DNA of 57,637 nt from a virus (IMGVR_UViG_3300030110_000139:1-57637); one strand, 5' to 3'; shown: positions 5,344 to 57,053, counted from the first letter of the stretch. A program made the numbers and translations. The notes: generated by a model from the letters alone, not told the origin.

Positions 5344-5361
5344 TTGTGAAAGTATTCAAGA

Positions 5362-6474: not shown

Positions 6475-6599
6475 AAAAAAATCTCCTATAATAGTTAAAA
6501 TGTTTGTTGCGAATCAATCCTAGCATTCTTTGAGCGAACACACAAGCATTGAATACCTATATATAAAATTAATCTTGAGCTATTCGATTAGCTCCAAAC

Positions 6600-7016
6600 G
6601 AATAAAATAGGCGAACAGCTTCGCATTTTTTAATTGTTCGCTCCAAAAGAGCTGGTCGACCAGGAAGCTGCAGCTGCATAGCCTGGCACTCCGACTCCGA
6701 CAGTCCGAGTCCGACAGTCCGATAGACCGAACAATAGTTCGTTGAAGGAGGCAGCAAGCGGATCGACCAGGCTAAATTCACGGCTTTTTCCTGGGTCAAC
6801 AGCATCCGAGACCGAACAATAGTTCGCTCTAGGAGGCGGACGACTGACGCACCAGGCACCAGAGCGAACAATCATTCGTTCAAACAGCTTAACCTGGTCA
6901 AATTAAGCTGGTAGAGCGAACAATCATTCGGCTGCAGCAGAGATCCGACCAGGAACGGAGGCAAAAAAAACCCACGCTAAGCTAAAAGCGTGGGTCTTAA
7001 TCCGAACAATGTCCGA
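6600..7016. repeat. GC-rich noncoding island 1 with CGAAC-N4-RTTCG boxes and TCCGA, CCWGG, GCWGC motifs
   Basis: Boxes at 6728, 6813, 6865 and 6917; five TCCGA copies within 6690-6722. Confidence 0.85.
6963..6995 (-). terminator. Rho-independent terminator
   Basis: ACCCACGCT/AGCGTGGGT stem plus T run on the minus strand. Confidence 0.75.
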
Positions 7017-7414: not shown

Positions 7415-7738
7415 TTAAATATACCTTTCTTTAAGTGCATAACCATCGCCATACAGAACACTCGCAAGAGTGTAAACCATATGAAAACCCATATCCATAC
7501 CACAACCACCAACACCAACGGACATGGTTTTATCTTTGTATGTCCATTTTAAAACATTAGCGACATGAAAAGAAAGCCAACTTAGTTCATTATTTTGGAT
7601 TGAGTGGCAACTTATATGCCTATACATTCCACTTCTTGAAACTTGTCTAATCACAAGCCAAACTGTAGAACCCTTTGGAAAATGTTTTTTTAATAGTTCT
7701 GTTGAGTATTCAACAGTATTCACATATACTTCTGTCAT
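7415..7738 (-). CDS. Conserved phage hypothetical protein (VSRSGM..., GCGMDMGF motifs)
   Basis: Strong AAAAGGAG RBS downstream of a consensus promoter. Confidence 0.75.
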   Translation of the reverse strand: MTEVYVNTVEYSTELLKKHFPKGSTVWLVIRQVSRSGMYRHISCHSIQNNELSWLSFHVANVLKWTYKDKTMSVGVGGCGMDMGFHMVYTLASVLYGDGYALKERYI

Positions 7739-7768
7739 AAAGACTCCTTTTGTTTTGTTTGTATATAT

Positions 7769-7819: not shown

Positions 7820-8165
7820 GTGTCGAGCTGGTCGATTTTTTGCAGCAGCTTGTCCTGGTGCTGCTCGACTAGAGCGAACAATAGTTCGCCAAACAATTGT
7901 TCGTTTGGTCTTCCCAGGGAGGAGGAGAGGCGGATGTCAGAATGAGGCGGAAGCTAAAACGAACAATAGTTCAGTCCGAGCCCGGGAAAGTCCGACACCG
8001 AACAATTATTCGCTGAACGACCAGGCTGAAGCTGACACCGAACAACGAACAAAAAAAGCACGGCAGAAGCCAGTCCGATGAAGCAGGCACACCGAACAAT
8101 GTCCGAAAGTCCGAGTCCGAAGTCCGAGCCTAGAAGCCCGACCCAGGCGTAAGACCGAACACGCC
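7820..8165. repeat. GC-rich noncoding island 2 with the same motifs as island 1
   Basis: Boxes at 7875, 7890, 7960 and 7999; four GTCCGA copies within 8101-8127. Confidence 0.85.
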
Positions 8166-9746: not shown

Positions 9747-10017
9747 ATCTTATAATCTGACCTACGTCAAAGTTACTATACAATGGTATGTTATCAAGCA
9801 CACCTGTGCCATTTAAAGCACCACCCTCTGAAATCTTAACCCACATAGCTTCTGACGCAAGATTAAGTTTTCTACCCTTGTCATTAACAGGGAATCTAAC
9901 TTTGGTGTACCCATCTGCAATATGTTCTTCATCACTTGCAAAACCCCACCCTTTGGGTATGTGCATTACATTTTTCTGCTCAAATTTTAAAGCTTTTCTT
10001 CTTTCTTTTTTATCCAT
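9703..10017 (-). CDS. Hypothetical protein (DUF2314-like EAMWV / GVLDNIP motifs)
   Basis: Tightly packed ORF in operon; motif resemblance only. Confidence 0.6.
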   Translation of the reverse strand: MDKKERRKALKFEQKNVMHIPKGWGFASDEEHIADGYTKVRFPVNDKGRKLNLASEAMWVKISEGGALNGTGVLDNIPLYSNFDVGQIIRYEEDEDGFPRYKAS

Positions 10018-10216
10018 TATCTTTCTCCCACATTTTTACAATTGGGGCATTGTAAAGTTCTGATTGTCTTTCAGCCTCTTTCATAGCCTTTTTATAAGGC
10101 ACTTCAAATGCTCTGCCACTTGTCATGCCACTACCATTTCTTTCCCAAGAAACAAGAGAAACATTATAGTTTTTACCACCCCAATGTTTCTCAACTCTCA
10201 CTTCATATGAACTCAT
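10010..10216 (-). CDS. Hypothetical protein
   Basis: TAATG-coupled ORF in operon. Confidence 0.65.
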   Translation of the reverse strand: MSSYEVRVEKHWGGKNYNVSLVSWERNGSGMTSGRAFEVPYKKAMKEAERQSELYNAPIVKMWEKDNG

Positions 10217-10695
10217 TAACTACCTACCTTTCTTGCTAGATTAATATTTAAGTCTTGATACATATAAGCTTCTTCTGCAGCACGACTTAAAAATTTGTTA
10301 TCAAGTGCAAAGTCTTTGTACCCATCATGTATAGAGCTATAATAAGCATCTGAGGGCATACCAATGCCTTTCCTACGCATATAGTAAAGCATAACTTTCT
10401 TGCCTTTAAAACCAGGTACATCAATTTGTAAACGCATCTTCTTATAAAGGTAAGGATAACCCTCAAACCTATCTAAAGACTTTTGACACTCTTTAGTAAT
10501 CTTCCATAAGCCAATAGGCACTTTTGCACTCTTGTCTTTAACAATGTCTGCAACACCATTAAACACAAGCCTATACCCAATTAAATTGAAACCAAGTATA
10601 GGCTTTGCTTTAGGGCAACGCACTTCCATTGCACTCATATTAAGGTTTGCACCATAAGCACCATACAACATTATTCTGCTCCCTCTAAAAAACAA
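10216..10695 (-). CDS. Gamma-glutamylcyclotransferase-like protein
   Basis: YGAYGANLN...RCP, LDRFEGYP..Y motifs. Confidence 0.85.
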   Translation of the reverse strand: MFFRGSRIMLYGAYGANLNMSAMEVRCPKAKPILGFNLIGYRLVFNGVADIVKDKSAKVPIGLWKITKECQKSLDRFEGYPYLYKKMRLQIDVPGFKGKKVMLYYMRRKGIGMPSDAYYSSIHDGYKDFALDNKFLSRAAEEAYMYQDLNINLARKVGS

Positions 10696-11012
10696 GCACC
10701 TAGAATATTCAGCTCTTGGACAATACCAAGACCATAGTCATAGCCTTGCTTGTAGTGATGGCATCTTTTGTCATCATCTTTGTTGCCATGCACCACAGCA
10801 TCAAATATGCCACTTTTATATGAATCTAAATCCTTAGATGTAAGCACATCAGCTTTAACTAATGTGCCAACTGAATCATTATTTAAAGAGTGGAAAAGAA
10901 AATTTTTAGAATTTTCTTTTAGTTCTTCTAAAAACTCTTCTGCATCTGTAGAATCTGTATTCACAATTTTTTCAAGTCTTTCAATTACATAACTGATATC
11001 TATTTTAGTCAT
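10671..11012 (-). CDS. Hypothetical protein
   Basis: Coupled ORF in operon. Confidence 0.65.
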   Translation of the reverse strand: MTKIDISYVIERLEKIVNTDSTDAEEFLEELKENSKNFLFHSLNNDSVGTLVKADVLTSKDLDSYKSGIFDAVVHGNKDDDKRCHHYKQGYDYGLGIVQELNILGACFLEGAE

Positions 11013-11374
11013 TAAGCTACCCTCTTTTCTACAAAATTAATTACTGCATCTAAGTTATCTGCATTAAGCAATAATGAAAACTTAGACTTTGTTATATTCA
11101 TATTATGAACTTCATAACCATTGCCATTTACATAAATAGCTAAATCTTTGGTATGATAGACTTGCACATCACTAAATGAAGCATCAATCCAATTACTAGG
11201 GAACTTTTTAACATGGTCTTGCACATCATTAATCATCTCCCAATACTCAACCACATCTCCATGAACATCTTTATCCTGCTCACACTCATGTCTAAGATTA
11301 GTCCTAGCTTGAGCATTGGTTGAATCGCCAAGAAACGCATTAAGCATTTCATCTGTAATCTTAATGTTCTCCAT
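11012..11374 (-). CDS. Hypothetical protein
   Basis: Coupled ORF with AAGGAG RBS. Confidence 0.7.
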   Translation of the reverse strand: MENIKITDEMLNAFLGDSTNAQARTNLRHECEQDKDVHGDVVEYWEMINDVQDHVKKFPSNWIDASFSDVQVYHTKDLAIYVNGNGYEVHNMNITKSKFSLLLNADNLDAVINFVEKRVA

Positions 11375-11607
11375 TACACAGACTCCTTACTCACACACCA
11401 CTCATCAAATGACTGACCAAAATGGTCATTGGTTTCTATGCAAAAGATTTCATAGTTGGCAAACAGCAAACCTCTTTTGCCAAAATTTTCTTCAACGCAT
11501 TTTAACAACGCATCTTTGTTGTCAAACTCTTTTGTTACAAATTTGCCATTGTCATCAAATGATGGCCAAACGCACTCTTGTACTGCTTCTTCAAATTTAT
11601 TTGTCAT
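11374..11607 (-). CDS. Hypothetical early protein, first gene of operon
   Basis: AAAGGAG RBS downstream of promoter. Confidence 0.7.
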   Translation of the reverse strand: MTNKFEEAVQECVWPSFDDNGKFVTKEFDNKDALLKCVEENFGKRGLLFANYEIFCIETNDHFGQSFDEWCVSKESV

Positions 11608-11639
11608 AACAAAACTCCTTTGTTTAAAATGTTATATCT

Positions 11640-11670
11640 AATATATAGGCACTCATATCCTATATGTCAA
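11640..11670 (-). promoter_or_regulatory. Sigma70 promoter overlapped by palindrome ATATAGG-N9-CCTATAT
   Basis: TTGACA followed 17-19 nt later by TATATATT. Confidence 0.75.
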
Positions 11671-11672
11671 CA

Positions 11673-12860
11673 TTATAAGTCAAATAATTTTAATTGTGGT
11701 TTAACATTTTTAATTCTTGCTTTGGCAATTTCATAATATTCGCTCTCTTTTTCTATTCCTATAAAGCTAAAATCTTCTTCTCTTGCACCCATACCTGTTG
11801 ACCCACTACCCATAAACGGATCAAGCACCACGCCTCCTTTTGGCGTTACCAAGCGAACAAGGTATCGCATCAGCTCAACAGGTTTAACTGTTGGGTGGGT
11901 GTTCGCCTTTATATCACCACCTAAACCAAACTTACGCTCATCTTTTGATGTCTTTGCACAATAAAAATACCTAGACGCATTACCCTGGTCTCCATATGCT
12001 GGCATAAATTGTTCGGTATCAGCAAGCTGACCAGCAGTCCAAATGCCCTTGTGTGTTCGCTCTCTGCTGACCTCCGTGCTGGAAGTTTCAGGAAATATTT
12101 CTTGTATTTGTTCGCTTCCATCGTGCATCACATTGCTTGGCCAACGACCTGTTTGATTATCAACTAAATCCGAATCCGATAGTTGTTTACGCTTGGCGTT
12201 AGATGTCTGACCGAATGATAGCTTGTCCACACCGATTGCAGCCTTACTTTGTTCGCCTTGATCACGGAAGTCTGGCATCGTATTTGGATGTTTGACCTCA
12301 CCCTCAATCCGACAAGCGTCAATGTTTATAGCACCAGTACCGAACTTGTCCATGTTGTCTGCTACCGACTTCTCCGACAAAGGCTTTCTTGCTAATACCA
12401 TTGGTTCATGTGCTGGTTTAAGAGCTGTACCCCAACCATTACCAATGTTATGGCTTTTGGGAAAACCACTACCATAAAGCCAAATACATTGATCACGGAT
12501 TTCAAATCCAGCATCTTCGATAGCAACTGCCATTCTGTGATATGTCCTAGAGCCACTAAACGCAATCATATGACCACCAGGTTTAAGAAGTTCATAACAT
12601 TTACGCCAAGTTTCTACTTGAAACGCTATGTCGCCACCATCCCACTCTTTGCCCATGAAGCCTTTGCTAGACCGAACAAACACGCCATCAGTCCCATGTT
12701 TTGCTGGTGCTGCATCTTCTTTACCGAACCTTTTAACTATTGATGTTAGATGGTACGGCGGATCTGTGACTATACTATCCACCGAACATTTCTCTATTTT
12801 GTCCATGACCTCTAAACAGTCGCCATGATAAACTGTGCTTCCCTCTACAATAATCTCCAT
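11673..12860 (-). CDS. DNA N6-adenine/N4-cytosine methyltransferase (beta class)
   Basis: TDPPY catalytic motif, HPTVKP, LDPFMGSGSTG SAM-binding motif. Confidence 0.92.
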   Translation of the reverse strand: MEIIVEGSTVYHGDCLEVMDKIEKCSVDSIVTDPPYHLTSIVKRFGKEDAAPAKHGTDGVFVRSSKGFMGKEWDGGDIAFQVETWRKCYELLKPGGHMIAFSGSRTYHRMAVAIEDAGFEIRDQCIWLYGSGFPKSHNIGNGWGTALKPAHEPMVLARKPLSEKSVADNMDKFGTGAINIDACRIEGEVKHPNTMPDFRDQGEQSKAAIGVDKLSFGQTSNAKRKQLSDSDLVDNQTGRWPSNVMHDGSEQIQEIFPETSSTEVSRERTHKGIWTAGQLADTEQFMPAYGDQGNASRYFYCAKTSKDERKFGLGGDIKANTHPTVKPVELMRYLVRLVTPKGGVVLDPFMGSGSTGMGAREEDFSFIGIEKESEYYEIAKARIKNVKPQLKLFDL

Positions 12861-12861
12861 A

Positions 12862-13548
12862 TTACCTCTCTAATAAACTTAATTGTTTTGTTTGTTTTTG
12901 TGTCCAACCTATTGGACATTGTATTGAATCTATTTCTCTTGCCATTTTTTCAGGACACCTATTGCTAGTCTTGTAATTCCTTGCAACATTAACAGAATCA
13001 GCAGAAGCAAACGGATAATGTTTACCAGACATATTCAGTCCTCTTAACATATGTATCCACGGCATAGTTTTAAATTTTTTATCTAGCTCATTAAATGCTT
13101 CATTAACTCGTTGTTCCCATGATGCAGAACCCACTTGCCAATACTCACCACTACTTCCAAAACAAACTTTGGGATATTCATTACATAAGTCAATTAAGTA
13201 ATCTAAACTTAAATGTAAGTGCCAAACAGGAACGCCATAACATTTAGAGTACGGCCACGTTTGTAAAAATTCTTTGTTTTCTTTCTCATCTCCACCAATT
13301 ATATCGGGTATAACTGCCCAATGTGGGTGTCCAAGCTTATCATCAAGCCAATTGTAATAAGCCTGGTGATTAAAAGTCTTCCCACTTGTAAATGTTGTAA
13401 AAGCACCATTATCCCACATTACGCTTTGACCTATTTGCAGACATATTTCAGCGTTTCTTGGATCAGCAAAGGAAACACAAAAGTGTTTCCCAGCCATTTT
13501 ATAAAGGTTCTCTTTAGGTGTAAGAGGTGTTCCATGATAATGTATCAT
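12862..13548 (-). CDS. TGT/DpdA-like transglycosylase-fold protein
   Basis: WDNGAF (compare TGT DSGGF), PDIIGG, VPVWH, IHMLRG, ASADS; gene context. Confidence 0.6.
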   Translation of the reverse strand: MIHYHGTPLTPKENLYKMAGKHFCVSFADPRNAEICLQIGQSVMWDNGAFTTFTSGKTFNHQAYYNWLDDKLGHPHWAVIPDIIGGDEKENKEFLQTWPYSKCYGVPVWHLHLSLDYLIDLCNEYPKVCFGSSGEYWQVGSASWEQRVNEAFNELDKKFKTMPWIHMLRGLNMSGKHYPFASADSVNVARNYKTSNRCPEKMAREIDSIQCPIGWTQKQTKQLSLLER

Positions 13549-13781
13549 GTGCTTACAATCTTAACCCCAGAGTGTTCGCCTACGATGGTCACTCTGCCAA
13601 ACATTTCTGACAACATTTTACTTAGTTGTTCTTGCAGATATCTTTTTTCATAAATCTCTTTTTGAAATTGTATAAATTTTTCAACATCTACTTGTTCGTT
13701 TGATTCAACAGTAACATCATATATGTTGACCATGCCATCATATGGACAACGACAAACTAATTTAAACTGATAGTTGTTCAT
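13545..13781 (-). CDS. Minimal QueF-like T-fold protein
   Basis: N-terminal CP motif, VE and LQEQL glutamates; sits between a VUT transporter and a TGT-like gene. Confidence 0.5.
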   Translation of the reverse strand: MNNYQFKLVCRCPYDGMVNIYDVTVESNEQVDVEKFIQFQKEIYEKRYLQEQLSKMLSEMFGRVTIVGEHSGVKIVST

Positions 13782-14253
13782 CTTTGTTTCTCAAGTAAAA
13801 ATAAATAGCTAATGCTGCCAACATTTTACTAACGAACATTGTGATACAAGCAAGCAAGCTAAACTGACCTATCATCAACAAGAAAACTGCACTATCAACT
13901 GGCGTTGATGCTAATGAACTTATTAAGATTCTTTCATGTAAAGGCTTACCAGTAAACGTGTAAACACCCCAATCTGTAAGTTCGCTTATCATAAACGCTA
14001 CAAATGAAGCTACTGCGATGAACGGATTAGCCATAACATAACTCAAGACTGCCCCAATAACCATAGCTCCAATAACTTTATGACCTATCTCCCTTTGTGC
14101 ATAATCTCGTAGTATAAATATAATACCAACAATAATGCTCATTGGTGGATACATGGTGTCATAAAATGGTATTAATGGGACGTAAACGAATCCCACATTG
14201 ATTAATACAACCGATAAAATATATGCGATTGTAAATTTATATTGATTTAACAT
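13762..14253 (-). CDS. VUT/YhhQ-family queuosine-precursor transporter
   Basis: Multi-TM protein with LRDYAQ, ASFVAFMISELTDWGVY and VDSAVF motifs. Confidence 0.8.
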   Translation of the reverse strand: MLNQYKFTIAYILSVVLINVGFVYVPLIPFYDTMYPPMSIIVGIIFILRDYAQREIGHKVIGAMVIGAVLSYVMANPFIAVASFVAFMISELTDWGVYTFTGKPLHERILISSLASTPVDSAVFLLMIGQFSLLACITMFVSKMLAALAIYFYLRNKDEQLSV

Positions 14254-14590
14254 AATTTGCTCCTTCTGTTAAGTTTCTATACTCTATGTTAATCCCCAAA
14301 TTTTTCGCTACTTCCATACCCATTTCCATGCCTTTTGATATACCTTTATCTGTATAGACTGCCATCAAATCTGCGTGACGATACCATTGAAACGCTCTTG
14401 ACATACCCATACCTCTAAGTTCAGGAATTCTGTCATCAAGCACTTGTGTATAAAGAAGATGCGAGGCAAAAGGGGCTTCGCCTCGCAAGAGAGAATCGCT
14501 CATACACTTTTGTGCATATGCGACATTACTTTTAACATCACCCATATAGGGTGATTCTATTATAACTAACATTATGTTGCTTTCAAGCAA
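14237..14590 (-). CDS. Nucleoside deoxyribosyltransferase-like (DUF4406-type) protein
   Basis: IIESPY.GD, APFASHLLY, GISKGMEMG motifs. Confidence 0.55.
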   Translation of the reverse strand: MLESNIMLVIIESPYMGDVKSNVAYAQKCMSDSLLRGEAPFASHLLYTQVLDDRIPELRGMGMSRAFQWYRHADLMAVYTDKGISKGMEMGMEVAKNLGINIEYRNLTEGANYVKSI

Positions 14591-14802
14591 GAGGCTGAAA
14601 CATCATAACCATCTGGTTTATCACCAAATTCTTTTTTTAGCCTTGCAAGTACCAATTTTCTGCTATGGTCAATATCATTATCACAACTCTGTTGTGTATA
14701 ATATTCAACCTGACTAACGTGCCATGTGCATTTTGTTTGTCCACCCATGTATCTAGGCCCCTCAACCCAAATGACACAAATCATTAAAAACATTTTAACC
14801 AT
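14572..14802 (-). CDS. Small Cys-containing, possibly exported protein
   Basis: Hydrophobic N-terminus and four Cys residues. Confidence 0.55.
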   Translation of the reverse strand: MVKMFLMICVIWVEGPRYMGGQTKCTWHVSQVEYYTQQSCDNDIDHSRKLVLARLKKEFGDKPDGYDVSASCLKAT

Positions 14803-14894
14803 TCAATTACCTTTCTGTAAGTACGGATAAATACATTGGGTTTTTTGTGAATGGTTGTTTCTTGAATATGCAACTTCAAATATTTATGTCTCAT
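14784..14894 (-). CDS. 36-aa basic peptide (MRHKYLKLHI...)
   Basis: Translated by hand; GGAG upstream; fills an operon gap. Confidence 0.45.
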   Translation of the reverse strand: MRHKYLKLHIQETTIHKKPNVFIRTYRKVIEWLKCF

Positions 14895-14930
14895 ATTACA
14901 CTCCATGTTATTTACCCAATTATCCTTAAA

Positions 14931-15131
14931 TTACACGCCATAATCAACAATAATCCCATTATCAAGTTGTTCTTCTTTCTTGATAACATCTGCGATATAT
15001 TCATGTCCGTGTTCGCCATAAGTCTCTTTGACTTTGACTAACGCTTGTTTATTCGTTAAGCCATCGTCATTAATTAATCCACCGAAGTATTCTTCTAGCT
15101 CAATTAAATGATTGTTTTGATATGCTGTCAT
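14931..15131 (-). CDS. Hypothetical protein
   Basis: AGGAG RBS. Confidence 0.65.
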   Translation of the reverse strand: MTAYQNNHLIELEEYFGGLINDDGLTNKQALVKVKETYGEHGHEYIADVIKKEEQLDNGIIVDYGV

Positions 15132-15132
15132 A

Positions 15133-16440
15133 TCACTCTCCTTTTGCTTTTTGTAAGTTGTAGTCGTTAATTTTCTTGCCTAGGTTTTTGTTGCCTGCTT
15201 CACATTGCTCAACCCAAACTCTCTTTGTGACATTGCCTCGTGCATCACGATAACGTCTCCAATGCCCTCTTCTCAAGTGCCACCTCTTTGGTGATCCATG
15301 ACCAGTAAAAATCTTTTCATATACTGTCTTACCTCTTGGCTTTGGTAGGTCAATATTGATAAGACTATATTCATTTGTAGGAACTTTTCTGCCATATCTA
15401 ACGTGAGCAATTTTAGTTTTTGCAGGTTCTTTCTTTTGTTGAACAATGAGATCATAATTCAACAAGGATAAAACACTAGCAATAAACCTCATGTCACCGC
15501 CTTGAATCAAAGCTAAATGTGTTGAAGCAATTTCGCTCATTGCTTCTTCCATGTAACCATCTTTGATTTGTTCTTTAGATGAAATCCAATCCATGCTACT
15601 TGACATGATCGTATTAAATCTTGAATACACTTCATTCATGGCTTGATAATCTTGAAGATTATCATCTAAAGTTTTTGCTTTCCAATAATCTTCATTGTTT
15701 TCATATTCACCAAAATGTTTTAAAACATAAGGATAACCTACTAGTTTAACTGCCTCATTAACTTGCTCTTTAATAAAAACATTTTTATCTAATCTTGGCT
15801 TTGTATATTTTTCACCCATGTTTCCTTGTTTAACAGTTGTGTTTAAAAAATGTTCATACATCATATCGTGATTGCACTCTTCATAATTAAAAACAGTATT
15901 AGACATTGGAGACATAATCCATTTGCCTTCTTTTTTTTTATCTCTATCAGGTAAATTACACCACATTTCATAAGAGATAGTGTTATCACCAAATAATGGT
16001 CTTGCTCCTAGATCAGTAACTGGTCTCTCATGAATATGATAACCAATTCTGTCTAAATAATCCGTCGGTTTTTCAATTCTATCTCTGTAGTCTGGCAAAA
16101 TTTTATCATAATACTTACTCATGGCATGAACTCTGTAATGTTCATCCCATTCAATAAACATATTTTTAAAAGGTGGAACTGCCGTCTTAATCATCTCGTT
16201 CAAAACATATGGTCTTGACATAGAGGCTTCGATAGCGTGGTCAATTAAATCATTACTAATCACAAACTTTTGTGCATTAACCAGTTTAACTTGCATCTGT
16301 CTAATAGCTGCTTGTGAATAAGAATGATGTTGATAACCCATAATCGTTCTTTTTGGTTGCGACATAGCACCAATAATTTCACTTGCCATCAATGGTTTAT
16401 TGACAAACTCATCTTTAACAAATTTTTCAAACTTTGACAT
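15133..16440 (-). CDS. 435-aa phage hypothetical protein with C-terminal HLRRGHWR motif
   Basis: Long ORF, GGAGG RBS, own promoter. Confidence 0.8.
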   Translation of the reverse strand: MSKFEKFVKDEFVNKPLMASEIIGAMSQPKRTIMGYQHHSYSQAAIRQMQVKLVNAQKFVISNDLIDHAIEASMSRPYVLNEMIKTAVPPFKNMFIEWDEHYRVHAMSKYYDKILPDYRDRIEKPTDYLDRIGYHIHERPVTDLGARPLFGDNTISYEMWCNLPDRDKKKEGKWIMSPMSNTVFNYEECNHDMMYEHFLNTTVKQGNMGEKYTKPRLDKNVFIKEQVNEAVKLVGYPYVLKHFGEYENNEDYWKAKTLDDNLQDYQAMNEVYSRFNTIMSSSMDWISSKEQIKDGYMEEAMSEIASTHLALIQGGDMRFIASVLSLLNYDLIVQQKKEPAKTKIAHVRYGRKVPTNEYSLINIDLPKPRGKTVYEKIFTGHGSPKRWHLRRGHWRRYRDARGNVTKRVWVEQCEAGNKNLGKKINDYNLQKAKGE

Positions 16441-16479
16441 ACTTCCTCCATTTGCTAGTATTTTGATAGTATATGATAG

Positions 16480-16508
16480 TCATATAGGAAGTCAATGCCA
16501 AATGTCAA
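16480..16508 (-). promoter_or_regulatory. Promoter/operator (TTGACA, weaker -10) upstream of the 435-aa gene
   Basis: TTGACA plus a TAGG-N9-CCAA operator-like copy. Confidence 0.55.
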
Positions 16509-16517
16509 TAATAAAAC

Positions 16518-16600
16518 AAAAAAAAAGACCTGGATTGCTCCAGGCCCTTTTCACAAACATTTTAAAACAAAAGGAGAAATCTTACGATTTCTTTCTTTAT
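16518..16600 (-). ncRNA. Predicted ~83-nt small RNA antisense to early-gene ribosome-binding leaders
   Basis: Own promoter; hairpin AGAAAUC-GUAA-GAUUUCU; linker CCUUUUGUUUUAAAAUGUUUGUG; terminator GGCCUGGA-GCAA-UCCAGGUC plus U run; no SD-led ORF. Confidence 0.7.
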
Positions 16601-16606
16601 AAATAT

Positions 16607-16635
16607 AATATAGGTATTGGGCCGTTTAGTGTCAA
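16607..16635 (-). promoter_or_regulatory. Sigma70 promoter of the small RNA
   Basis: TTGACA-17 nt-TATATT. Confidence 0.75.
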
Positions 16636-16913
16636 GGCATATCATCAATAATACTTGAAGTATTAACATGAGTTGGGTTTCTTCGAACTCTACCAACATC
16701 ATTTTCTTTTAATGCTCTAGGATCATCTTCAAAGAAAGCTTCTTCTTCAACATAAACTGATGGCTTTAAACCATTCAAGTCTACTTTTTTTGGAGAAAAC
16801 TTATTAGCATCTGCTGCTTCACATTTATCGCATAATGGTTTTCTTTTATTTTTAACTTTATGTGCGAGTATTAATCTAGGACAAGCAGAACATCTTTCAT
16901 ACTTTGCTATCAT
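16632..16913 (-). CDS. Small zinc-finger-like hypothetical protein
   Basis: CSAC and CDKC pairs. Confidence 0.6.
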   Translation of the reverse strand: MIAKYERCSACPRLILAHKVKNKRKPLCDKCEAADANKFSPKKVDLNGLKPSVYVEEEAFFEDDPRALKENDVGRVRRNPTHVNTSSIIDDMP

Positions 16914-18342
16914 TATCTGCTTCCTTTATAGCATAAAATATTCGAGCTACCACTTGAGGCACGATGCTATTCCCTAAACATCTAAGTCGGTGTACCCTGT
17001 TGGATACCCCATGAGCCACTCTACCCACGTTGGGTTCAACGTCCCAGGTGATTGGTCTCTCACGGAAGGGTGGTTGCCTAACATCTTTTGCATCTTTCCA
17101 CCCGGTCTGCCCGCCGCATCTTCGTTTGCTGATGGTGTAGGGAACATCTCCTTTTTCTTGTTCTCCCAATAAACTTTTCTTGGCAGACTCATTCTTTGAC
17201 GATTCTCCTTCCAATTTTCCATGTTGCCCGAGTCCTTGTAATCCCTTGCTGTTGGTGTTGGAAACATCTCTCTCTTGGGATAATTCCATTTCTCCATTCT
17301 TGGTGGTCTGAGAGTGCAACCTAGCATCTGCTCTGCTTGTTGTTCGGTCATCTCCCCCGCCTCTACCTTCTTTCTGAAGATCATAGTCTGACCCATTGAT
17401 GCGTGTCCGTACCCCTTTGTTGTCGGTGTCGGCCACATTATCTCTTCCCTTACTCTTGGTGTTGGAAACATCTTCACTTCGTCCACTAATGTTATTGCAC
17501 TTGAGCCGTCTTTCTTCACTTTCTCGTAAAGCTCCTTGCTCTTCGGACCTTGCTTGGCATTCGCTGCTGTTGGTGTCCTCCACATCTTCACGCTGTCTGC
17601 TAAGTTCAGACTGTGACTGCTCTTCCCGTCTTTGCTCAACCTCCTGTTGTTCGGTGTCAACTCCACTTGTGGGTGCTCTATCTCCTGTGTTGTTGGTGTT
17701 GGCCATAAGGTCGAAGATGTCTGTTTGTACATATCCATTGTCTTGTTGTCCACTTGCTCCCTCAAGTTCGCTGGCTTTGTTCGTCCCTTGCGTTGACCCT
17801 CCATCAATTTGATTGTCCCCTCTTCTGAACGAGGTGGCAGATGATCCATTGTGTTCGGTGTGGCCCACAACCCAGCATCGCATTCGTCTATGTTTTGCAT
17901 CGACGGCTGCAGCTGGAATAAGATATGGGATGGCTTTGTATCCGATACTTTCCAGGTCAATGAGACTTCTTCTGAGGCCCATTGGCATTGTAACAAAGCC
18001 TGACACATTTTCGCCAATGACCCATTTAGGCCGTATGTCTTCAATAATCCTAACCATTTCGTGCCAGAGATCTCGGTCGTCTTCGCTTCCTCTCTGAGAG
18101 CCTGCGACACTCCAAGGTTGACATGGGAATCCTCCAACAACGATGTCTGCATCTTTGTATTCTTTTCCATTAAAACTCCTTATATCACTATATATTGGTA
18201 CATCGTGCCAATGTTTACGCAAGACTTTTTGACAATATTGATCTCTCTCAACAAAAGCTACTGTCTCAAAGCCACCTACTATTTGTTCTGCAGCATAACT
18301 AAATCCGCCTATGCCACTAAATAAATCTACTATCTTATACAT
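16897..18342 (-). CDS. C5-cytosine DNA methyltransferase, alpha chain (lacks motif IX)
   Basis: DLFSGIGG (I), GGFPCQ (IV), ENV (VI), HRRMR (VIII), LGNSIVP (X); long low-complexity middle. Confidence 0.9.
   Translation of the reverse strand: MYKIVDLFSGIGGFSYAAEQIVGGFETVAFVERDQYCQKVLRKHWHDVPIYSDIRSFNGKEYKDADIVVGGFPCQPWSVAGSQRGSEDDRDLWHEMVRIIEDIRPKWVIGENVSGFVTMPMGLRRSLIDLESIGYKAIPYLIPAAAVDAKHRRMRCWVVGHTEHNGSSATSFRRGDNQIDGGSTQGTNKASELEGASGQQDNGYVQTDIFDLMANTNNTGDRAPTSGVDTEQQEVEQRREEQSQSELSRQREDVEDTNSSECQARSEEQGALRESEERRLKCNNISGRSEDVSNTKSKGRDNVADTDNKGVRTRINGSDYDLQKEGRGGGDDRTTSRADARLHSQTTKNGEMELSQERDVSNTNSKGLQGLGQHGKLEGESSKNESAKKSLLGEQEKGDVPYTISKRRCGGQTGWKDAKDVRQPPFRERPITWDVEPNVGRVAHGVSNRVHRLRCLGNSIVPQVVARIFYAIKEADNDSKV
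16974..18170 (-). CDS. Nested alternative-frame methyltransferase beta chain with seven (W/F)xTP repeats and a motif IX-like C-terminus
   Basis: 398-codon open frame, internal AGGAG RBS 6 nt before ATG, LNPTWVEWLMGYP. Confidence 0.75.
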   Translation of the reverse strand: MEKNTKMQTSLLEDSHVNLGVSQALREEAKTTEISGTKWLGLLKTYGLNGSLAKMCQALLQCQWASEEVSLTWKVSDTKPSHILFQLQPSMQNIDECDAGLWATPNTMDHLPPRSEEGTIKLMEGQRKGRTKPANLREQVDNKTMDMYKQTSSTLWPTPTTQEIEHPQVELTPNNRRLSKDGKSSHSLNLADSVKMWRTPTAANAKQGPKSKELYEKVKKDGSSAITLVDEVKMFPTPRVREEIMWPTPTTKGYGHASMGQTMIFRKKVEAGEMTEQQAEQMLGCTLRPPRMEKWNYPKREMFPTPTARDYKDSGNMENWKENRQRMSLPRKVYWENKKKEMFPTPSANEDAAGRPGGKMQKMLGNHPSVRDQSPGTLNPTWVEWLMGYPTGYTDLDV

Positions 18343-20512
18343 TGTCTCTCGCTGTAGTCGCCTCGTATTCACCTCTGCTCATTGCACCATCTATAGTGCC
18401 AAGCCATTTCCTACCACCACTTGTGCTAAATGAATACTTTGCAAGTCTACCCTCTTGTATAAGTTCTCTGACAAGACCATCAATCATTCTTTGTGTGCAA
18501 TTGTTTAATACTCGTGGTGCATCAGTATCAGCAGACATACGTTGCGTTATAGCATCTGCACCAGACTGTTGTGTCATAGCTCTGCCTTCTCTTTCACAAT
18601 CTGCAATCCAATTAAATAATGCGGTCTTTTTAATCTCTTTATTTGTACCACTATGCAGTCTTGAGATATCATCACTCTTATCAATCAATAAGCCACTATA
18701 TTCATCTCTAATAAAATGTCTTATGTTTCTGTTTGCAGGTCCATTAGACTTTACTACTGCACCATCAAAGCATTTGTTTCGTTTGTATTCTATTCCTAAA
18801 TCTTGACATCTTCTGCGTCCATTAGCCTCATCTACTTGCCATAATGCAAAAGCACAACGAACACCATCTACCAATGCAGACGTACCTCTAATCATATTTC
18901 TTGCTTGTTCAGGTGTATTTACAACTAAATCTTCTTTAACTTTAGTCATGTGGTGACACATAATAACAGACGCACCGGTTTCTGTAGCTATCTGTGCCAA
19001 TAGTCCAGTTAATGCTGCACCTGCTGCAGGGTCTGAGTTTACATCTGCATGAACAAATGAAGCTAACGGATCAAAGACAATTAGTTTTAAATTTTTCATC
19101 TGTAGTATTTGCTCATAAATTTTATCAAATTCATCGCTTGTTCTGTATCCATCATGTGTTTCTTGTAATATTGGAAATACACCACCAACATTAGGTAAAC
19201 TTACAATTCGTAACTCATGATCATATTCAATTCTACTGCCACTAGCATCAAGTCTTTCAATACGTCTGTGCATCTCTGCTTCGTCATCTTCTGCTGTAAA
19301 TATAATAGAATTACCAAACTCACTAATCATGCCACCAAAAGATTCTTGCATTGACTGACCACTTGATACTTTCATAGCTAAGTCAAGTGTCATCATGCCT
19401 TTACCACTATCACCTGCAGCAGAGAATATTATAGGCACTGCTAAAGGTAATGTGTTTGCTATCAAAAACTTTTGCTCTGGTGCTTGTCCTACAAATCTAT
19501 TAATGAGCATACTGTCATCAAGAAGATTAATATTCTTTTTAACTTGCTTTACATTGGTGTTAAGAAACTCGTTAATGTTAAATTGCTCTGCTATCGCATC
19601 AACAACATCCCATCTTTCAGGCTTACCTCTTGGTGGCGTTAATGTGGTTACTGATTTGACACCAGCGTTTAATGCAAGTTCTTGTACTAGCTCTGCAACT
19701 TTACGACCAGCTGTGTCATTATCTGGCCAAATCACAAGTTCTTTCTCATGTAATGGAGAAAAGTCAAATAAGTTTGCAGACTTTCTTGACAACATACCCG
19801 CACCACCCATAGTACAAGTTGTTGTATAACCTAAGTCATTTAAGGCATCTGCACACTTTTCACCCTCAACCCATATAATTTTTTCAGAGGCTATAATGTT
19901 TGGTATGTTGTATAGTGGGCGAACATCAGGCATACGAGGATAATTACTGCCACCTGTAAACTGTCTAAATTCTTTCTTTGGTTTGCCGTGTGAATCAAGT
20001 ATTGGATTTCCATCTTGATCTATATCGTTGTATCTTCTAACAAGACAAAGTAATTCACCTTGAGCATTTAAATATCTGTGTTCGCTATCATATGGTGTAT
20101 TAATGTTTATTTGTTTAGCTTCAGGTTTAATAATTGAACTTATGCTTTCTATTGGTTGTGGTGCTTCGTTATCCAAATATGAATCAAACAACTCTTTAAC
20201 TTCTGGTAACTTCATGTTTCTACCTTCCATCAAAATTTTAACGATACCACCCACTCCATCTGCACCATTAAAATCTTGCCCTTTCATAAAATAAGGAGAC
20301 CTTGGATTTATATCAATTTTTAAAGACTTTCCAGCTTCGCCATGTAACGAGCCTATTGTAAATTGATCTCCTCTAATTACACCTTGAGGATAGGTTTCTC
20401 TTAACATATCAATTTGTACACTCGCTGGGACTTTTTGACTTATCATTTCAACAAGTTCTTTGGAATCCATACTGCGTTTATTATTGCCAAATTTAATAAT
20501 GTTCATTACCAT
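18335..20512 (-). CDS. Primase-helicase (Toprim domain + RecA-like AAA_25 helicase)
   Basis: WVEGEKCAD and WPDND Toprim motifs; GDSGKG Walker A, IVFDP Walker B, CHH. Confidence 0.88.
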   Translation of the reverse strand: MVMNIIKFGNNKRSMDSKELVEMISQKVPASVQIDMLRETYPQGVIRGDQFTIGSLHGEAGKSLKIDINPRSPYFMKGQDFNGADGVGGIVKILMEGRNMKLPEVKELFDSYLDNEAPQPIESISSIIKPEAKQININTPYDSEHRYLNAQGELLCLVRRYNDIDQDGNPILDSHGKPKKEFRQFTGGSNYPRMPDVRPLYNIPNIIASEKIIWVEGEKCADALNDLGYTTTCTMGGAGMLSRKSANLFDFSPLHEKELVIWPDNDTAGRKVAELVQELALNAGVKSVTTLTPPRGKPERWDVVDAIAEQFNINEFLNTNVKQVKKNINLLDDSMLINRFVGQAPEQKFLIANTLPLAVPIIFSAAGDSGKGMMTLDLAMKVSSGQSMQESFGGMISEFGNSIIFTAEDDEAEMHRRIERLDASGSRIEYDHELRIVSLPNVGGVFPILQETHDGYRTSDEFDKIYEQILQMKNLKLIVFDPLASFVHADVNSDPAAGAALTGLLAQIATETGASVIMCHHMTKVKEDLVVNTPEQARNMIRGTSALVDGVRCAFALWQVDEANGRRRCQDLGIEYKRNKCFDGAVVKSNGPANRNIRHFIRDEYSGLLIDKSDDISRLHSGTNKEIKKTALFNWIADCEREGRAMTQQSGADAITQRMSADTDAPRVLNNCTQRMIDGLVRELIQEGRLAKYSFSTSGGRKWLGTIDGAMSRGEYEATTARDNV

Positions 20513-20552
20513 CTCCTATGATGGCGGTACTTTGCTACCTTCTGTATCGCCA

Positions 20553-21338
20553 TCACCCTTCACTCCAACAAGTATTTGAATACTGACAAAATCTACAATC
20601 AAACACATCTCTATTCTGTGCTATTCTTGGCAGCATTTCATTTTGCTTAGATGCTCTTAATATATTAACTGCTCTATCACTAGCATATTGTGCCAACTCT
20701 TGATTAAACGGAACTAGCTCATAATAGATTTCACTTGTGTTCTTGTTAATAACTGTGAATAAACATGGATTATCTGTCAGTTCCATGTAAGCTTGATACA
20801 AGGCAACTTGTACTTCATATGTAGGATTTGCCTTAATACCTTTAAACCTAAAATCTCTAAACTTTTTCTCATTAGCAGATTTACATTCCCAAAGCATGGG
20901 GTAATCAACATCAAGAGGTCCACCACATATCACGCCATCTATGTGTCCTTTAATCTCATCATCTGCTATTGCAAAGCCAAACTGTTCGCCATTCTTGTCT
21001 ATAGTCCTTAAATCAAAACCCGCATTTCTAATCCATCCAGCCATACTGTTTTCTAACTCATGGCCTAACTGAAATATTCTTAATGTTTGTGCATTAAACT
21101 CTTTGTTTTCATCTGGTTGTTGCCCTTGATAAGTATACTGTATTTTTCTTGCACATTTATCACCTAGCATAGAACCACCTAAATATCTTCTTCTAGGTTG
21201 AGACTTATTCTTCTCAACAATAATCTTATCAATGATTTCTTCAAAAGGGTAATTCATTGTCTGTTGGTTCTGTTTCGTCTTTGCCGTGGACATATTTAAG
21301 AAGTAATCTATCGAGTTCTTGTTTGTTGTATTGTTCAT
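20553..21338 (-). CDS. Cas4-like PD-(D/E)XK exonuclease
   Basis: C.RK, GHELE, GHIDG, WECKS, Q...Y, C-terminal CRFC...C; true start probably MNYPFEE. Confidence 0.82.
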   Translation of the reverse strand: MNNTTNKNSIDYFLNMSTAKTKQNQQTMNYPFEEIIDKIIVEKNKSQPRRRYLGGSMLGDKCARKIQYTYQGQQPDENKEFNAQTLRIFQLGHELENSMAGWIRNAGFDLRTIDKNGEQFGFAIADDEIKGHIDGVICGGPLDVDYPMLWECKSANEKKFRDFRFKGIKANPTYEVQVALYQAYMELTDNPCLFTVINKNTSEIYYELVPFNQELAQYASDRAVNILRASKQNEMLPRIAQNRDVFDCRFCQYSNTCWSEG

Positions 21339-21489
21339 CTTCTTCTACCTTCTTTGAGAATTGCATTATTGTAACTGTGGCTTTTATTTCCTCTTCAGTC
21401 AAATCACTAAGTTTTTTATCCCAACTAAACCTAGTAAAAAGTTTAGTTAAATTTGTTAATGAATCGTCTCCGATATTGGGTTTATCCAT
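21241..21489 (-). CDS. Hypothetical protein
   Basis: ORF in replication operon ending DNELPF. Confidence 0.6.
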   Translation of the reverse strand: MDKPNIGDDSLTNLTKLFTRFSWDKKLSDLTEEEIKATVTIMQFSKKVEEDEQYNKQELDRLLLKYVHGKDETEPTDNELPF

Positions 21490-21740
21490 CTACCTTCTCC
21501 CTCTTTATAAAGTGAACCAGTTAAAATTTCCATGCCATCAAAAAATGCGGAAAAAGTAATTTGTAAAACCTCGTTCTTGTTTAACTTAACAATTCTATCA
21601 AATGTCTTTCCAAGATCATCAGCTAGTATATCTGGGTCTCCACCAAGCTTAAACCACATGAATAAACTACCTTCTTTTACATTTTCTACACCAACTTTAT
21701 TCTCTTCGTGAATAAGATATTTAACTTCCATTCTTGCCAT
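21456..21740 (-). CDS. Hypothetical protein
   Basis: ORF in replication operon. Confidence 0.6.
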   Translation of the reverse strand: MARMEVKYLIHEENKVGVENVKEGSLFMWFKLGGDPDILADDLGKTFDRIVKLNKNEVLQITFSAFFDGMEILTGSLYKEGEGRWINPISETIH

Positions 21741-22023
21741 CTTTTGCCTCTATTGCTAATGCCGCATATCCAATAATGTCAATCATGTTATCTTCTACTT
21801 TTGGATTTTGGCTGTTTCTAATTTGCTTAATACCTATCATTGCTCTGTAAACATCATGTATATCAAGCGGCTCTTTTAATTTCTTTCTTAATAATATGTT
21901 CCACATCTGAGCTATGTAAGTATGTGTCTCTGTAGCGTCACCATGAGATTTCGCTCGTGAACCATTTATTAGTAAGTCTGCTTTTTTTAAAGCTTCACTA
22001 CGCTGCACTATTCCCTCCTTCAT
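21721..22023 (-). CDS. DUF6378-like phage protein
   Basis: R...HGD...IAQMW...K..R...DNMIDIIGYAAL pattern. Confidence 0.7.
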   Translation of the reverse strand: MKEGIVQRSEALKKADLLINGSRAKSHGDATETHTYIAQMWNILLRKKLKEPLDIHDVYRAMIGIKQIRNSQNPKVEDNMIDIIGYAALAIEAKDGKNGS

Positions 22024-23680
22024 AATAATTTAGAATTTTTGCATCAATTTCTTTTTTATTCCACAAGTAATTTAACCAACAAGCGGCTTTGTACTTATTC
22101 CAACTAAAATCCATTGGTCTAACAAACTGACCTAACATAGCTAAAGCGTTCTTTTGTTTCATTGTTACGCCTTGATTTAGCCATCTTTTACCTTTCTTTG
22201 CACCATCACTATCTTCAATGCCTCTCAGAAAGTCATCAGCAGACGCAATAGCTTGTTCTTTAGTACCTACACTAACAACCCTTAAACGCCCTTTGTTACG
22301 CCTTACAAGAGCGACAGAAATGTCATTTAAGTGTGCAACTAATCCAAATCCATTAAACCCACTAGCCATCATACATCTTTTGTTTTCAAACAAATCAAGC
22401 CATCTAAAAGGCGATCTATCAATCAAATCAACCTCAGTCATAGTAAACTCATCAAGAACTTCTTTGTCTTGTGTGCCAAACTCATGTCCACAGATAGGAC
22501 ATTCTCGTGATGACAAAGGTATCTCTGATTGACAATCTGGACAAACTTTAAGTGGCGTTGCACCAGCGTTAGTTGCTTGTGCTCCATCAAGATCAACGCC
22601 CTCATCTAATGAACCATGTGTAAGCACACTTGTTCCAAAATCTAATACAATGCAATTTTTTTTAATCAGACCAGGATATTCTTCTTGATTGACAGTTCTT
22701 AATCCACGACCAATCATCTGTACCATTGTTGATTTATATGAACATGGTCTAGTCAATACAATGCAACTAATTGGTGGTGCATCAAAACCCTCGGTCAATA
22801 CTGCTACGTTTACAACGACTTGAACATCACCATGCTCTAAATCATGTAAAATTTGCTTTCTTTGTTCGCTTGGTGTGTCTCCAGTAACAATTTCTGCTCT
22901 AACATTCTTACGTCTAAATTCATCACATACATCTTGTGCATGGACAATGGTGCTACAGAAGATGACTGTCTTTCTCTCATTAGCTTTGTCTTGCCACTCT
23001 TCAACAATCTTTTCATTAATAGCTCTCTTGTTCATAATCTTTTCAACTTCTGACATATCAAAATCAGTTACAGTCTTACGAACATTCTCTAAATCTTTCT
23101 GTACACCTACATCAACAACATACGTTTTTGGTGGCACTAAAAAGCCTTCTCTAATTAATGTGCTAATCTCAATTTGATGTGAGCAGTTGGTGAATACTTT
23201 TCTTAAACCTTTTCTGTCTCCACGATTGGGTGTTGCAGTAAAACCTACAATCTCAACAGATTCATTGGCTTGTCTAACTTTATCAATAATACGCATATAA
23301 GTATCTGCTACTGCATGATGACTTTCATCAACAACAACAAGATCAAAGTGACTTATGTTATTTAAATTGTTCTCTCTTGATAGCGTTTGCACCATGCTAA
23401 AGATAGTGCTGCCATTCCAATCTTTTTCTGACCCATCAACAATACTGGTTGTGATGTTTGGGTTAACTCTTGAAAACTTTGTTTTGTTTTGTCTTACTAA
23501 CTCATCTCTGTGTTGCAATACCAAAACTTTATTTCCAACTTTAAATCTTTTACCAACCAATGCAGACAACATAATAGTTTTGCCCGCACCAGTAGGTGCA
23601 ACTACAATTGTGTTCTTATGTTTGTCTAAAGCAGTTGAAGCATCGTCTACTGCTATCTCTTGGTATGGTCTTAAAATCAT
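21998..23680 (-). CDS. Superfamily 2 DEAD/DEAH helicase with zinc ribbon
   Basis: LRPYQ, PTGAGKT, DESHH, TATP, TEGFD, QMIGRGLR, CPDC/CPIC. Confidence 0.93.
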   Translation of the reverse strand: MILRPYQEIAVDDASTALDKHKNTIVVAPTGAGKTIMLSALVGKRFKVGNKVLVLQHRDELVRQNKTKFSRVNPNITTSIVDGSEKDWNGSTIFSMVQTLSRENNLNNISHFDLVVVDESHHAVADTYMRIIDKVRQANESVEIVGFTATPNRGDRKGLRKVFTNCSHQIEISTLIREGFLVPPKTYVVDVGVQKDLENVRKTVTDFDMSEVEKIMNKRAINEKIVEEWQDKANERKTVIFCSTIVHAQDVCDEFRRKNVRAEIVTGDTPSEQRKQILHDLEHGDVQVVVNVAVLTEGFDAPPISCIVLTRPCSYKSTMVQMIGRGLRTVNQEEYPGLIKKNCIVLDFGTSVLTHGSLDEGVDLDGAQATNAGATPLKVCPDCQSEIPLSSRECPICGHEFGTQDKEVLDEFTMTEVDLIDRSPFRWLDLFENKRCMMASGFNGFGLVAHLNDISVALVRRNKGRLRVVSVGTKEQAIASADDFLRGIEDSDGAKKGKRWLNQGVTMKQKNALAMLGQFVRPMDFSWNKYKAACWLNYLWNKKEIDAKILNYYEGGNSAA

Positions 23681-25686: not shown

Positions 25687-25728
25687 GATTGATCCTTTCT
25701 CAAATTATAATAGACACTAGATACCTAT

Positions 25729-25757
25729 AAAGTAGGCATACATATCCTATATGTCAA
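25729..25757 (-). promoter_or_regulatory. Sigma70 promoter of the replication operon with TAGG-N9-CCTA palindrome
   Basis: TTGACA-17 nt-TACTTT; spacer nearly identical to 11646-11670. Confidence 0.75.
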
Positions 25758-25766
25758 TAGTTATTG

Positions 25767-57052: not shown

Positions 57053-57053
57053 A

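Follow-up and report, generated by a model that had tools for sequence, protein, structure and literature searches.

Does the segment at positions 16518-16635 (minus strand) of an uncultured marine phage genome encode a small RNA (sRNA), and does this RNA act in trans on the leaders of several genes of the same phage, as a preliminary description of the locus had proposed? The window, i.e., the whole stretch of DNA that was analyzed, is an entire IMG/VR virus record of 57,637 bp with a CheckV completeness of 100, and nearly all of its genes are on the minus strand. Using the window and sets of related loci, we compared the architecture of the segment, its conservation and its complementarity to gene leaders with shuffled, reversed and sRNA-free controls, and weighed the alternatives to base pairing.

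Genome setting and anatomy of the locus

The main genes, in the order of minus-strand transcription, are the following:

54249-56648: portal
48407-49318: major head protein
about 26-41 kb: tail proteins
21998-23680: helicase, with a Cas4-like exonuclease next in transcription order
18335-20512: primase/helicase, two genes upstream of the sRNA unit
16897-18372: C5 DNA methylase
16632-16913: 93-aa ORF (p93), immediately upstream of the sRNA unit
15133-16440, minus: 435-aa ORF (p435), no family, downstream of the sRNA unit
downstream of p435: DUF7768, Vut_1-like and queuine-tRNA-ribosyltransferase-like proteins, an N6/N4 methylase and many small ORFs
5362-6474: amidoligase (Pfam Amidoligase_2, 4e-13), with an HTH protein further on
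803-2272: large terminase

For the terminase, phage 023Pt_psg01 and the Pelagibacter phages HTVC027P and HTVC023P have counterparts with an identity of 56-60%, which makes a SAR11-type host plausible; by the same comparison, the carrier phages appear to be related to the HTVC023P-type Pelagibacter phages. The genes at 12862-14590 together with the amidoligase gene (5362-6474) form a cluster that suggests a 7-deazaguanine-type DNA modification. The members of this cluster are a queuine-tRNA-ribosyltransferase-like protein (phrog_887), a Vut_1-like membrane protein, a DUF7768 protein, which is nucleoside 2-deoxyribosyltransferase-like, and, further on, the amidoligase; two DNA methylases are also present in the genome. 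The two ORFs at each end of the record (56651-57530 and 80-803) are paralogous pairs with near-identical leaders, which could reflect either a tandem duplication split by the record ends or a diverged terminal repeat.

The locus itself is composed of the following elements, all on the minus strand:

16607-16635: sigma-70-type promoter of the sRNA, with the -35 box TTGACA (16635-16630), a 17-nt spacer and the -10 box TATATT (16612-16607)
16518-16600: predicted sRNA of ~83 nt, its 5' end inferred from the -10 box and its 3' end placed in the T-run
16575-16592: hairpin 1, a 7-bp stem AGAAAUC/GAUUUCU with a GUAA loop
16553-16574: seed, the single-stranded G/U-rich 22-mer CCUUUUGUUUUAAAAUGUUUGU
16518-16552: intrinsic terminator, with the stem at 16552-16521, a GCAA loop and then a T-run
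16466-16509: tandem promoter-like boxes for the 435-aa gene (16501-16473 and 16495-16468, 10/12 each)

The promoter scores 11/12 and is the joint best of 43 promoter-like sites found in a scan of 10000-22000; the sequence and the coordinates that the preliminary description gave for it (TTGACA-17-TATATT at 16635-16607, minus strand) are exact. Equally exact was its account of a unit of ~83 nt with two hairpins, the second of which is an intrinsic terminator, in agreement with the terminator scan and with the fold of the 83-nt RNA (16600 to 16518; -27.8 kcal/mol, z -4.9); none of 200 shuffled sequences was as stable. In the minimum free energy structure, the seed is unpaired except for weak A-U and G-U pairs with the 5' AUAAAG.

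The presence of a dedicated promoter and an intrinsic terminator is indicative of an independent transcription unit, as expected of a trans-encoded base-pairing sRNA. The promoter-like boxes upstream of the 435-aa gene are kept in relatives, and because they are located between the terminator and this gene, the sRNA unit is not its leader. The TGA stop of the 93-aa ORF falls within the -35 box of the sRNA promoter; thus, the upstream primase-methylase-p93 operon has its 3' end in the unit and is terminated by the sRNA terminator as well. A 23-nt direct similarity (74%) connects 16491-16513 with 16631-16653, around the -35 boxes of the downstream promoter and of the sRNA promoter, respectively, and is compatible with the sRNA unit having arisen or inserted through duplication of a promoter region. 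The contigs of one seawater metatranscriptome (X1) cover parts of the 435-aa and methylase genes, and none extends over 16376-16911; it should be noted that contigs cannot show an 83-nt RNA. A discrete transcript, repression, an 'early' timing and any chaperone are features that we infer for this system.

Several other identities of the locus were considered and rejected. A small ORF in the linker (ATG-TTT-GT) has no SD and reaches a stop after 3 codons in most relatives, and the frame of a plus-strand ORF (16400-16651) is broken by indels of 1-5 nt among the variants. A riboswitch or attenuator (e.g., preQ1; queuosine-type genes are nearby) is contradicted by the preQ1-II score of 17.3 bits vs 47, on the opposite strand, and, as far as the 435-aa gene is concerned, by the conserved promoter boxes that intervene after the terminator.

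Distribution and structural conservation in related phages

We retrieved 32 IMG/VR loci via the 435-aa protein and searched them with a covariance model, R1, that was built from 11 variants. The sRNA unit was found upstream of the 435-aa homologue in 13 of these 32 protein-anchored relatives (L002-L012, L017 and L028), with no R1 match in the other 19. For these 13 relatives, the window and L034, the E values were between 1e-10 and 1e-14, the window itself scoring 100.2 bits (E 2e-14). Scans with the 22-mer pattern matched 20 IMG/VR, 30 metagenome and 3 genome-contig stretches; R1 recognized the unit in 29 of the 30 metagenome stretches and at 8 further IMG/VR loci that were new. In total, the family includes 27 distinct variants. 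The preliminary description had made conservation in relatives a test of its proposal, and the unit passes it, with these 13 relatives, the further IMG/VR and metagenome contigs and the 27 variants; at the level of sequence, the claim of a stand-alone small RNA gene with its own promoter and terminator holds.

The distribution is patchy. Four sRNA-free relatives that were searched over their whole length contain no sRNA unit, and in eight more distant relatives the 93-aa homologue is directly followed by the next promoter, with neither the unit nor a terminator. In three relatives (L025, L026 and L031, positions 2920-2993 in each), a tRNA-Cys(GCA) gene lies directly upstream of the 435-aa homologue, in the region of the sRNA slot. 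The unit-free junctions and these tRNA genes imply that the slot holds an accessory small-RNA gene, and the p93-p435 junction seems to accommodate accessory genes for small RNAs. Absence from 19 of the 32 relatives and from the four nearest GenBank phages also means that the sRNA is dispensable for this phage type: of HTVC027P, HTVC023P, 023Pt_psg01 and DSL-LC04, two gave R1 matches with E values of 0.19 and 0.8, and the remaining two gave none. Among GenBank phages, megablast of 15800-17400 returned a methylase fragment only, and blastn of the 220-nt intergenic sequence returned only chance matches of 24-36 nt.

The search of Rfam, another check that had been proposed, was run on the whole window and found no family at its gathering score. 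With permissive thresholds, 16400-16700 gave 19 weak matches (E <= 10), the best being ncr1015 with 31 bits vs 60; these matches, all far below the cut-offs, are probably driven by the terminator. The GcvB family proper (RF00022) was rejected at 12 bits vs a gathering score of 42. An immunity antisense RNA of the c4/sar type was rejected as well, there being no such family among the 19 matches with E <= 10 and several unlinked candidate targets. Among cellular genomes (185,579 species representatives), three unrelated MAG contigs contain a single copy of the 22-mer each; these sites lack the terminator and most of the model (E 0.02-0.36) and are therefore treated as chance. The 22-mer never forms an array in cellular genomes (the three single MAG sites being the only occurrences), which speaks against an RNA anti-CRISPR or a solitary CRISPR repeat.

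In the alignment of the 27 variants, which was fitted to the model, 88.4% of the cells pair, compared to 72.3 +/- 1.2% in shuffles, and the covariation score is 0.511, compared to 0.228 +/- 0.017; in both cases, none of 500 shuffles reached the observed value. When the 3' partners are slid by 1-3 columns, pairing falls from 88% to 25-60%. Helix 1 is 99.5% paired in the 27 variants, with six of its seven pairs changed on both sides; its stems read, for example, AGAAAUC, GUAAUC, GGUGAUC, GGAAUCA, AAAAUCA or AAUGGUG, and the loop lengths differ. Helix 2, the terminator, covaries too (4/9 pairs changed on both sides). Structural covariation is therefore present in both stems. The GNRA tetraloops that had been pointed out on both hairpins do exist in the window (GUAA and GCAA), but they are not a conserved trait, being found in only 3 of the 27 distinct variants.

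The promoter is similarly constrained. A TTGAC(A/T)-17-TATA.. promoter, ending 5-6 nt before a conserved AU(A/G)AAG start, is present at 33 of the 37 loci with distinct flanks; of the four exceptions, three contain N and one (L097) has an unrelated upstream sequence. The length of the spacer is fixed at 17 nt, and its sequence differs between clades. The sRNA promoters of relatives repeatedly contain a spacer motif, (A/G)TGCCTAT or AATACCTAT, which is related to a motif, TTGACATATAGGATATG(A/T)(G/A)TGCCTA, that is shared by two other minus-strand promoters of the window, at about 11625-11660 and about 25720-25760; the former also has an inverted repeat, ATATAGG..CCTATAT, between -35 and -10, which is operator-like.

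The seed is the most conserved part of the RNA in the loci found via the neighboring protein, which were thus collected independently of the seed: in the seed, 5 of 23 columns are variable vs 39 of 59 elsewhere, and pairwise identity is 0.93 vs 0.67. A conserved seed is embedded between variable, covarying modules, as is the case for trans-encoded base-pairing sRNAs. The CU of the CUCC element is part of the 3' arm of hairpin 1, which is variable, and is replaced by AC, CG or UU in relatives, so that only the CC and the U-run are conserved, and the conserved single strand is the 22-mer rather than a full anti-SD sequence. The conserved target is a C/A-rich stretch just 5' of the SD and not the SD core. 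This weakens the earlier suggestion of general binding to SD regions.

Complementarity to phage leaders

The candidate target leaders in the window, all on the minus strand, are listed below with the exact complementary blocks and their ranks among 79 leaders:

7744-7762: p107 leader (gene 7415-7738), ACAAAC-AAAAC-AAAAGG(AG); exact block 7744-7756 (13 nt); cofold gain -15.9, rank 2/79; adjoins, downstream, its own TTGACA-17-TATAAT promoter
6482-6507: amidoligase leader (gene 5362-6474), ACAAACAUUUUAA ... AGGAGA; exact block 6495-6507 (13 nt); cofold -17.8, rank 1/79
5330-5351: p54 leader (gene 5159-5323, GTG start), candidate target; exact blocks 5330-5341 (12 nt) and 5341-5351 (11 nt); linker energy -26.2 kcal/mol, best of 79; cofold rank 4
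5173-5192: p68 leader (gene 4960-5166, GTG start), candidate target; exact block 5173-5184 (12 nt); cofold rank 3
11615-11633: p77 leader (gene 11374-11607), weaker candidate target; exact block 11623-11633 (11 nt); linker -17.3; cofold -11.1, rank 7; z -2.7
15137-15146: p66 leader (gene 14931-15131), weak candidate target; match mostly SD plus an A-run; cofold rank 5; 22-nt seed alone not significant (fraction 0.07-0.34)

The complementary blocks named in the preliminary description are all exact, and all of them are located in leaders of minus-strand genes. Its five target leaders are indeed complementary to the linker; they are not five independent targets, though, because the p54 and p68 leaders (5323 and 5166) are paralogous copies with the identical RBS GGAGUCAAUCGUG, which leaves four. 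Short tandem repeats occur in the small-gene region between the candidate target operons, at 6690-6730 (TCCGACAG x4.6, or TCCGACTCCGACAG x2.4) and at 8101-8128 (GTCCGAAAGTCCGA x2.1), and are possible iterons or binding sites for proteins. A perfect hairpin, UCAAGACUAG-GAAA-CUAGUCUUGA (5362-5400, minus), directly follows the amidoligase stop, just before the p54 leader; as it has no T-run, it may be an element of RNA stability or processing rather than a terminator.

A comparison of all leaders with shuffled controls had been proposed, and two such tests were carried out on the 79 minus-strand genes, which were called crudely by ORF length and SD strength, so that some starts are surely wrong. 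In the linker test, the anti-SD part of the 31-nt linker was held fixed and the rest was shuffled 500 times. The observed best energy (-26.2, p54) was reached by 1.8% of the shuffles, the fifth-best (-20.5) by 0.2% and the sum of the top five by 0.6%; the median over all leaders was the same for the observed and the shuffled linkers. In the cofold test, the whole sRNA was paired with each leader, with charges for opening structure, and the central 17 nt were shuffled 94 times. The top seven of the 79 leaders were those of the genes starting at 6474, 7738, 5166, 5323, 15131, 23680 and 11607, with energies of -17.8 to -11.1, compared to -8.8 or weaker for the others. None of the 94 shuffles reached the best, the fifth-best or the top-five sum, and one reached the third-best. 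Thus, the five leaders originally named are within the top seven and beyond the 94 seed shuffles.

Other statistics argue against this reading. When the entire transcribed strand is scanned by raw duplex energy, the p54 and p68 leaders are the only ones to emerge (-27.7 and -23.7), with the amidoligase (-21.7) and p107 (-21.5) leaders interleaved with coding-region sites of about -22; in a related genome (G003), the best raw site is within a gene. For the bare 22-nt seed in the window, the top-three statistic is weak (z -1.3, fraction 0.09). The seed and the leaders are partly of low complexity, (UUUG)n vs (CAAA)n.

For the comparison of leaders, nine related records were fetched; since these genomes are related, the replication is not fully independent. 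The z-scores of the seed were -1.3 to -2.3 in six sRNA-bearing genomes, compared to +0.2 to +0.4 in three sRNA-free genomes and -1.1 in a fourth one. In four sRNA-bearing genomes, the top-five sum was -71.5 to -76.3 for the seed vs -52 to -57 for the reversed seed, which has the same composition and repeat content; in two sRNA-free genomes, the corresponding values were -58 to -61.5 and -57.5 to -61.

An orthologue of p107 (78-81% identity) was found in all four sRNA-bearing genomes in which the region is covered, but not in the two informative sRNA-free genomes; the leaders of these orthologues all read ACAAAC..AAAAC..AAAAGGAG. The leaders of the amidoligase orthologues have diverged, one of them (G009) having a different promoter region; each keeps 9-14 nt complementary to the center of the seed, in differing registers. 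Compared with 1000 shuffles in G000, G001, G002 and G009, the amidoligase leader had z-scores of -3.6 to -5.7 and the p107 leader of -2.7 to -4.1; the p435, HTH, helicase and p66 leaders were mostly not significant, an exception being the helicase leader of G001 (z -2.9). Further contigs contributed four amidoligase leaders with z -2.1 to -4.2 and five p107 leaders with z -2.2 to -3.8. Two of six amidoligase rows had z about 0, which we attribute to miscalled start codons (internal ATG).

Covariation between the sRNA and its leaders had been suggested as a check. In an 8 x 8 matrix of sRNAs by p107 leaders, the pairing was -19.7 kcal/mol for own and -19.0 kcal/mol for cross combinations, and there is no clear general co-variation. 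A possible compensatory change, GUUUU to GUUUC in the seed with AAAAC to GAAAC in the leader, is a single event in one lineage and needs a 2-nt bulge. Taken together, the comparisons of sequence suggest a complementarity to several translation-initiation regions that exceeds chance and is kept in relatives, as would be expected of a base-pairing sRNA.

Proposed mechanism, alternative explanations and known systems

We lean, by a modest degree, toward the view that, in a clade of uncultured marine phages, the locus encodes a trans-acting base-pairing sRNA as a gene of its own, and that the seed of this sRNA represses several phage leaders. Host RNA polymerase would initiate at the conserved sigma-70-type promoter and stop at the intrinsic terminator, producing an RNA of ~83 nt that would consist of a variable 5' hairpin, a near-invariant 22-nt single strand and the terminator hairpin. 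The seed is predicted to pair with C/A-rich leader segments immediately 5' of, and running into, the SD of promoter-proximal cistrons, namely amidoligase, p107 and p54/p68, and more weakly p77. Such pairing would make ACA-type enhancer elements, together with the 5' half of the SD, inaccessible to the 30S subunit, and the outcome would be lower translation and possibly lower mRNA stability. By analogy, this action would resemble that of GcvB, with the difference that the RNA would be phage-encoded and aimed at the phage's own mRNAs from the replication and DNA-modification region. The sRNA thus probably turns down translation of the phage's own mRNAs. The idea of an antisense RNA against multiple leaders is the leading hypothesis, not a proven one, and its anti-SD and GNRA aspects are to be dropped.

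The same RNA could be directed mainly at host mRNAs, e.g., like GcvB, at abundant transporter mRNAs with C/A-rich leaders, a leader style that the phage would merely share. A moron-like, dispensable unit that contains an invariant 22-nt seed and has a promoter and a terminator of its own is typical of host-directed phage sRNAs such as VpdS and PreS (PMC12197685), and the conserved part of the seed avoids the SD core. Yet the orientation-specific complementarity to phage leaders is seen only in sRNA-bearing genomes, and p107 with its matching leader accompanies the sRNA in 4/4 sRNA-bearing and 0/2 informative sRNA-free genomes; we regard the host-directed function as unlikely. Somewhat less likely still is that the unit does not pair at all and serves the upstream operon as its 3' UTR and terminator module, and/or acts as a sponge or protein-binding RNA whose invariant U-rich stretch would bind Hfq or another RNA-binding protein, with incidental complementarity to the leaders. 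The unit is, after all, also the 3' end of the primase-methylase-p93 operon, and the own-vs-cross matrix shows no clear co-variation. A U-rich stretch beside a terminator with a long U-tail, moreover, is the classical Hfq-binding layout. Against this, a dedicated promoter with a fixed 17-nt spacing is present at 33 of 37 loci, relatives that lack the unit manage without any terminator at the junction, and the complementarity beats shuffled and reversed controls of identical composition.

We give very little credence to an element acting at the level of DNA or replication, such as a primer or R-loop RNA at an origin near the primase/helicase gene, or an AT-rich operator or unwinding element. 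The primase/helicase gene (18335-20512) is indeed located two genes upstream, with the C5 methylase and p93 in between, and the invariant stretch is AT-rich and contains the palindrome TTTTAAAA. Conversely, there are no iterons or repeated boxes in 16300-16800, the tandem short repeats being elsewhere (6690-6730 and 8101-8128), the unit is missing from half of the relatives that have the same replication genes, and the compensatory stem changes, combined with loops of variable length, point to selection on RNA structure.

If repression of the phage's own leaders is the correct reading, a multi-target sRNA would serve lytic marine phages to time or balance the expression of their genes, and a circuit of a G/U-rich seed and C/A-rich leaders would exist outside Enterobacteria. 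The RNA family is compact and well delimited; its 27 natural variants amount to a built-in mutational series, with variable stems and a fixed seed, and there are concrete candidate targets, so that the hypothesis is directly testable with reporters even though the phage is uncultured.

Among the known systems, the closest in action is GcvB, an RNA of about 200 nt. In the original work on C/A-rich elements, GcvB reportedly pairs with such elements upstream of the SD. The pairing takes place at ACA enhancer motifs, just upstream of the SD and reaching into it (PMC3879156). The marine sRNA shares with GcvB (RF00022) a conserved single-stranded G/U-rich seed, structured flanks, an intrinsic terminator and several unlinked targets; unlike GcvB, to which it has no homology (12 bits vs 42), it is ~83 nt long and phage-encoded, and its best candidate targets are the phage's own leaders. 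Phage immunity antisense RNAs are another point of comparison, P4 CI being of the same kind as c4 and sar. P1/P7 c4 and P22 sar are described as blocking ribosome binding on phage mRNAs (PMC12197685). The likeness is that these, too, are phage small RNAs that pair around the RBS of phage mRNAs. In contrast to the marine sRNA, they belong to temperate phages, have a single antirepressor or immunity target and are cis-encoded or part of the same operon; the marine unit is equipped with a promoter and a terminator of its own, and its several unlinked candidate targets are at distances of 1.3-11 kb. The cultured relative HTVC027P is described as lytic (PMC12753301).

Stand-alone, trans-acting phage sRNAs are exemplified by VpdS of vibriophage VP882 and PreS of lambda (PMC12197685; bioRxiv 10.1101/2024.10.31.621285). 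Both regulate host mRNAs, and VpdS regulates phage mRNAs as well (PMC12197685). They differ from the marine sRNA in that there is no relation in sequence or structure, the hosts are others, they are Hfq-dependent, and their key documented targets are host genes. Among the phage sRNAs described in PMC12197685 are VpdS, PreS, 24B_1, the PAK_P4 asRNAs, sar, OOP, aQ, IsrK, AgvB, AsxR and c4; trans-acting ones have been reported for a small number of enterobacterial, Vibrio and Pseudomonas phages. The marine sRNA is unrelated in sequence to the phage sRNAs named here, none of which comes from the HTVC023P-type group. The terms sRNA, small RNA, non-coding RNA and promoter do not occur in the searched text of the paper on HTVC023P-type phages (PMC9599517), and the first three are equally absent from that of the HTVC027P transcriptome paper (PMC12753301). 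In a limited search of the literature, no sRNA was found described for marine HTVC023P-like phages. The unit represents a new family of phage sRNAs of a known kind and probably works like GcvB.

T4 RegA is a protein repressor that shuts off several phage mRNAs at their initiation regions. In a more far-reaching reading, which we put forward tentatively and think rather doubtful, the marine RNA would be a master sRNA and the RNA counterpart of RegA, using a GcvB-like G/U-rich seed to silence ACA-rich enhancers in the promoter-proximal leaders of its own phage (amidoligase, p107 and p54/p68). The sRNA and the target leaders would have been gained together as an accessory circuit, in a clade related by its terminase to the most abundant pelagiphage type of the ocean (the HTVC023P type), and the RNA would possibly reach host mRNAs as well. 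If so, this phage group would have its first described regulatory RNA. The outcome would match that of RegA, the effector being a protein in T4 and, as proposed here, an RNA in the marine phages.
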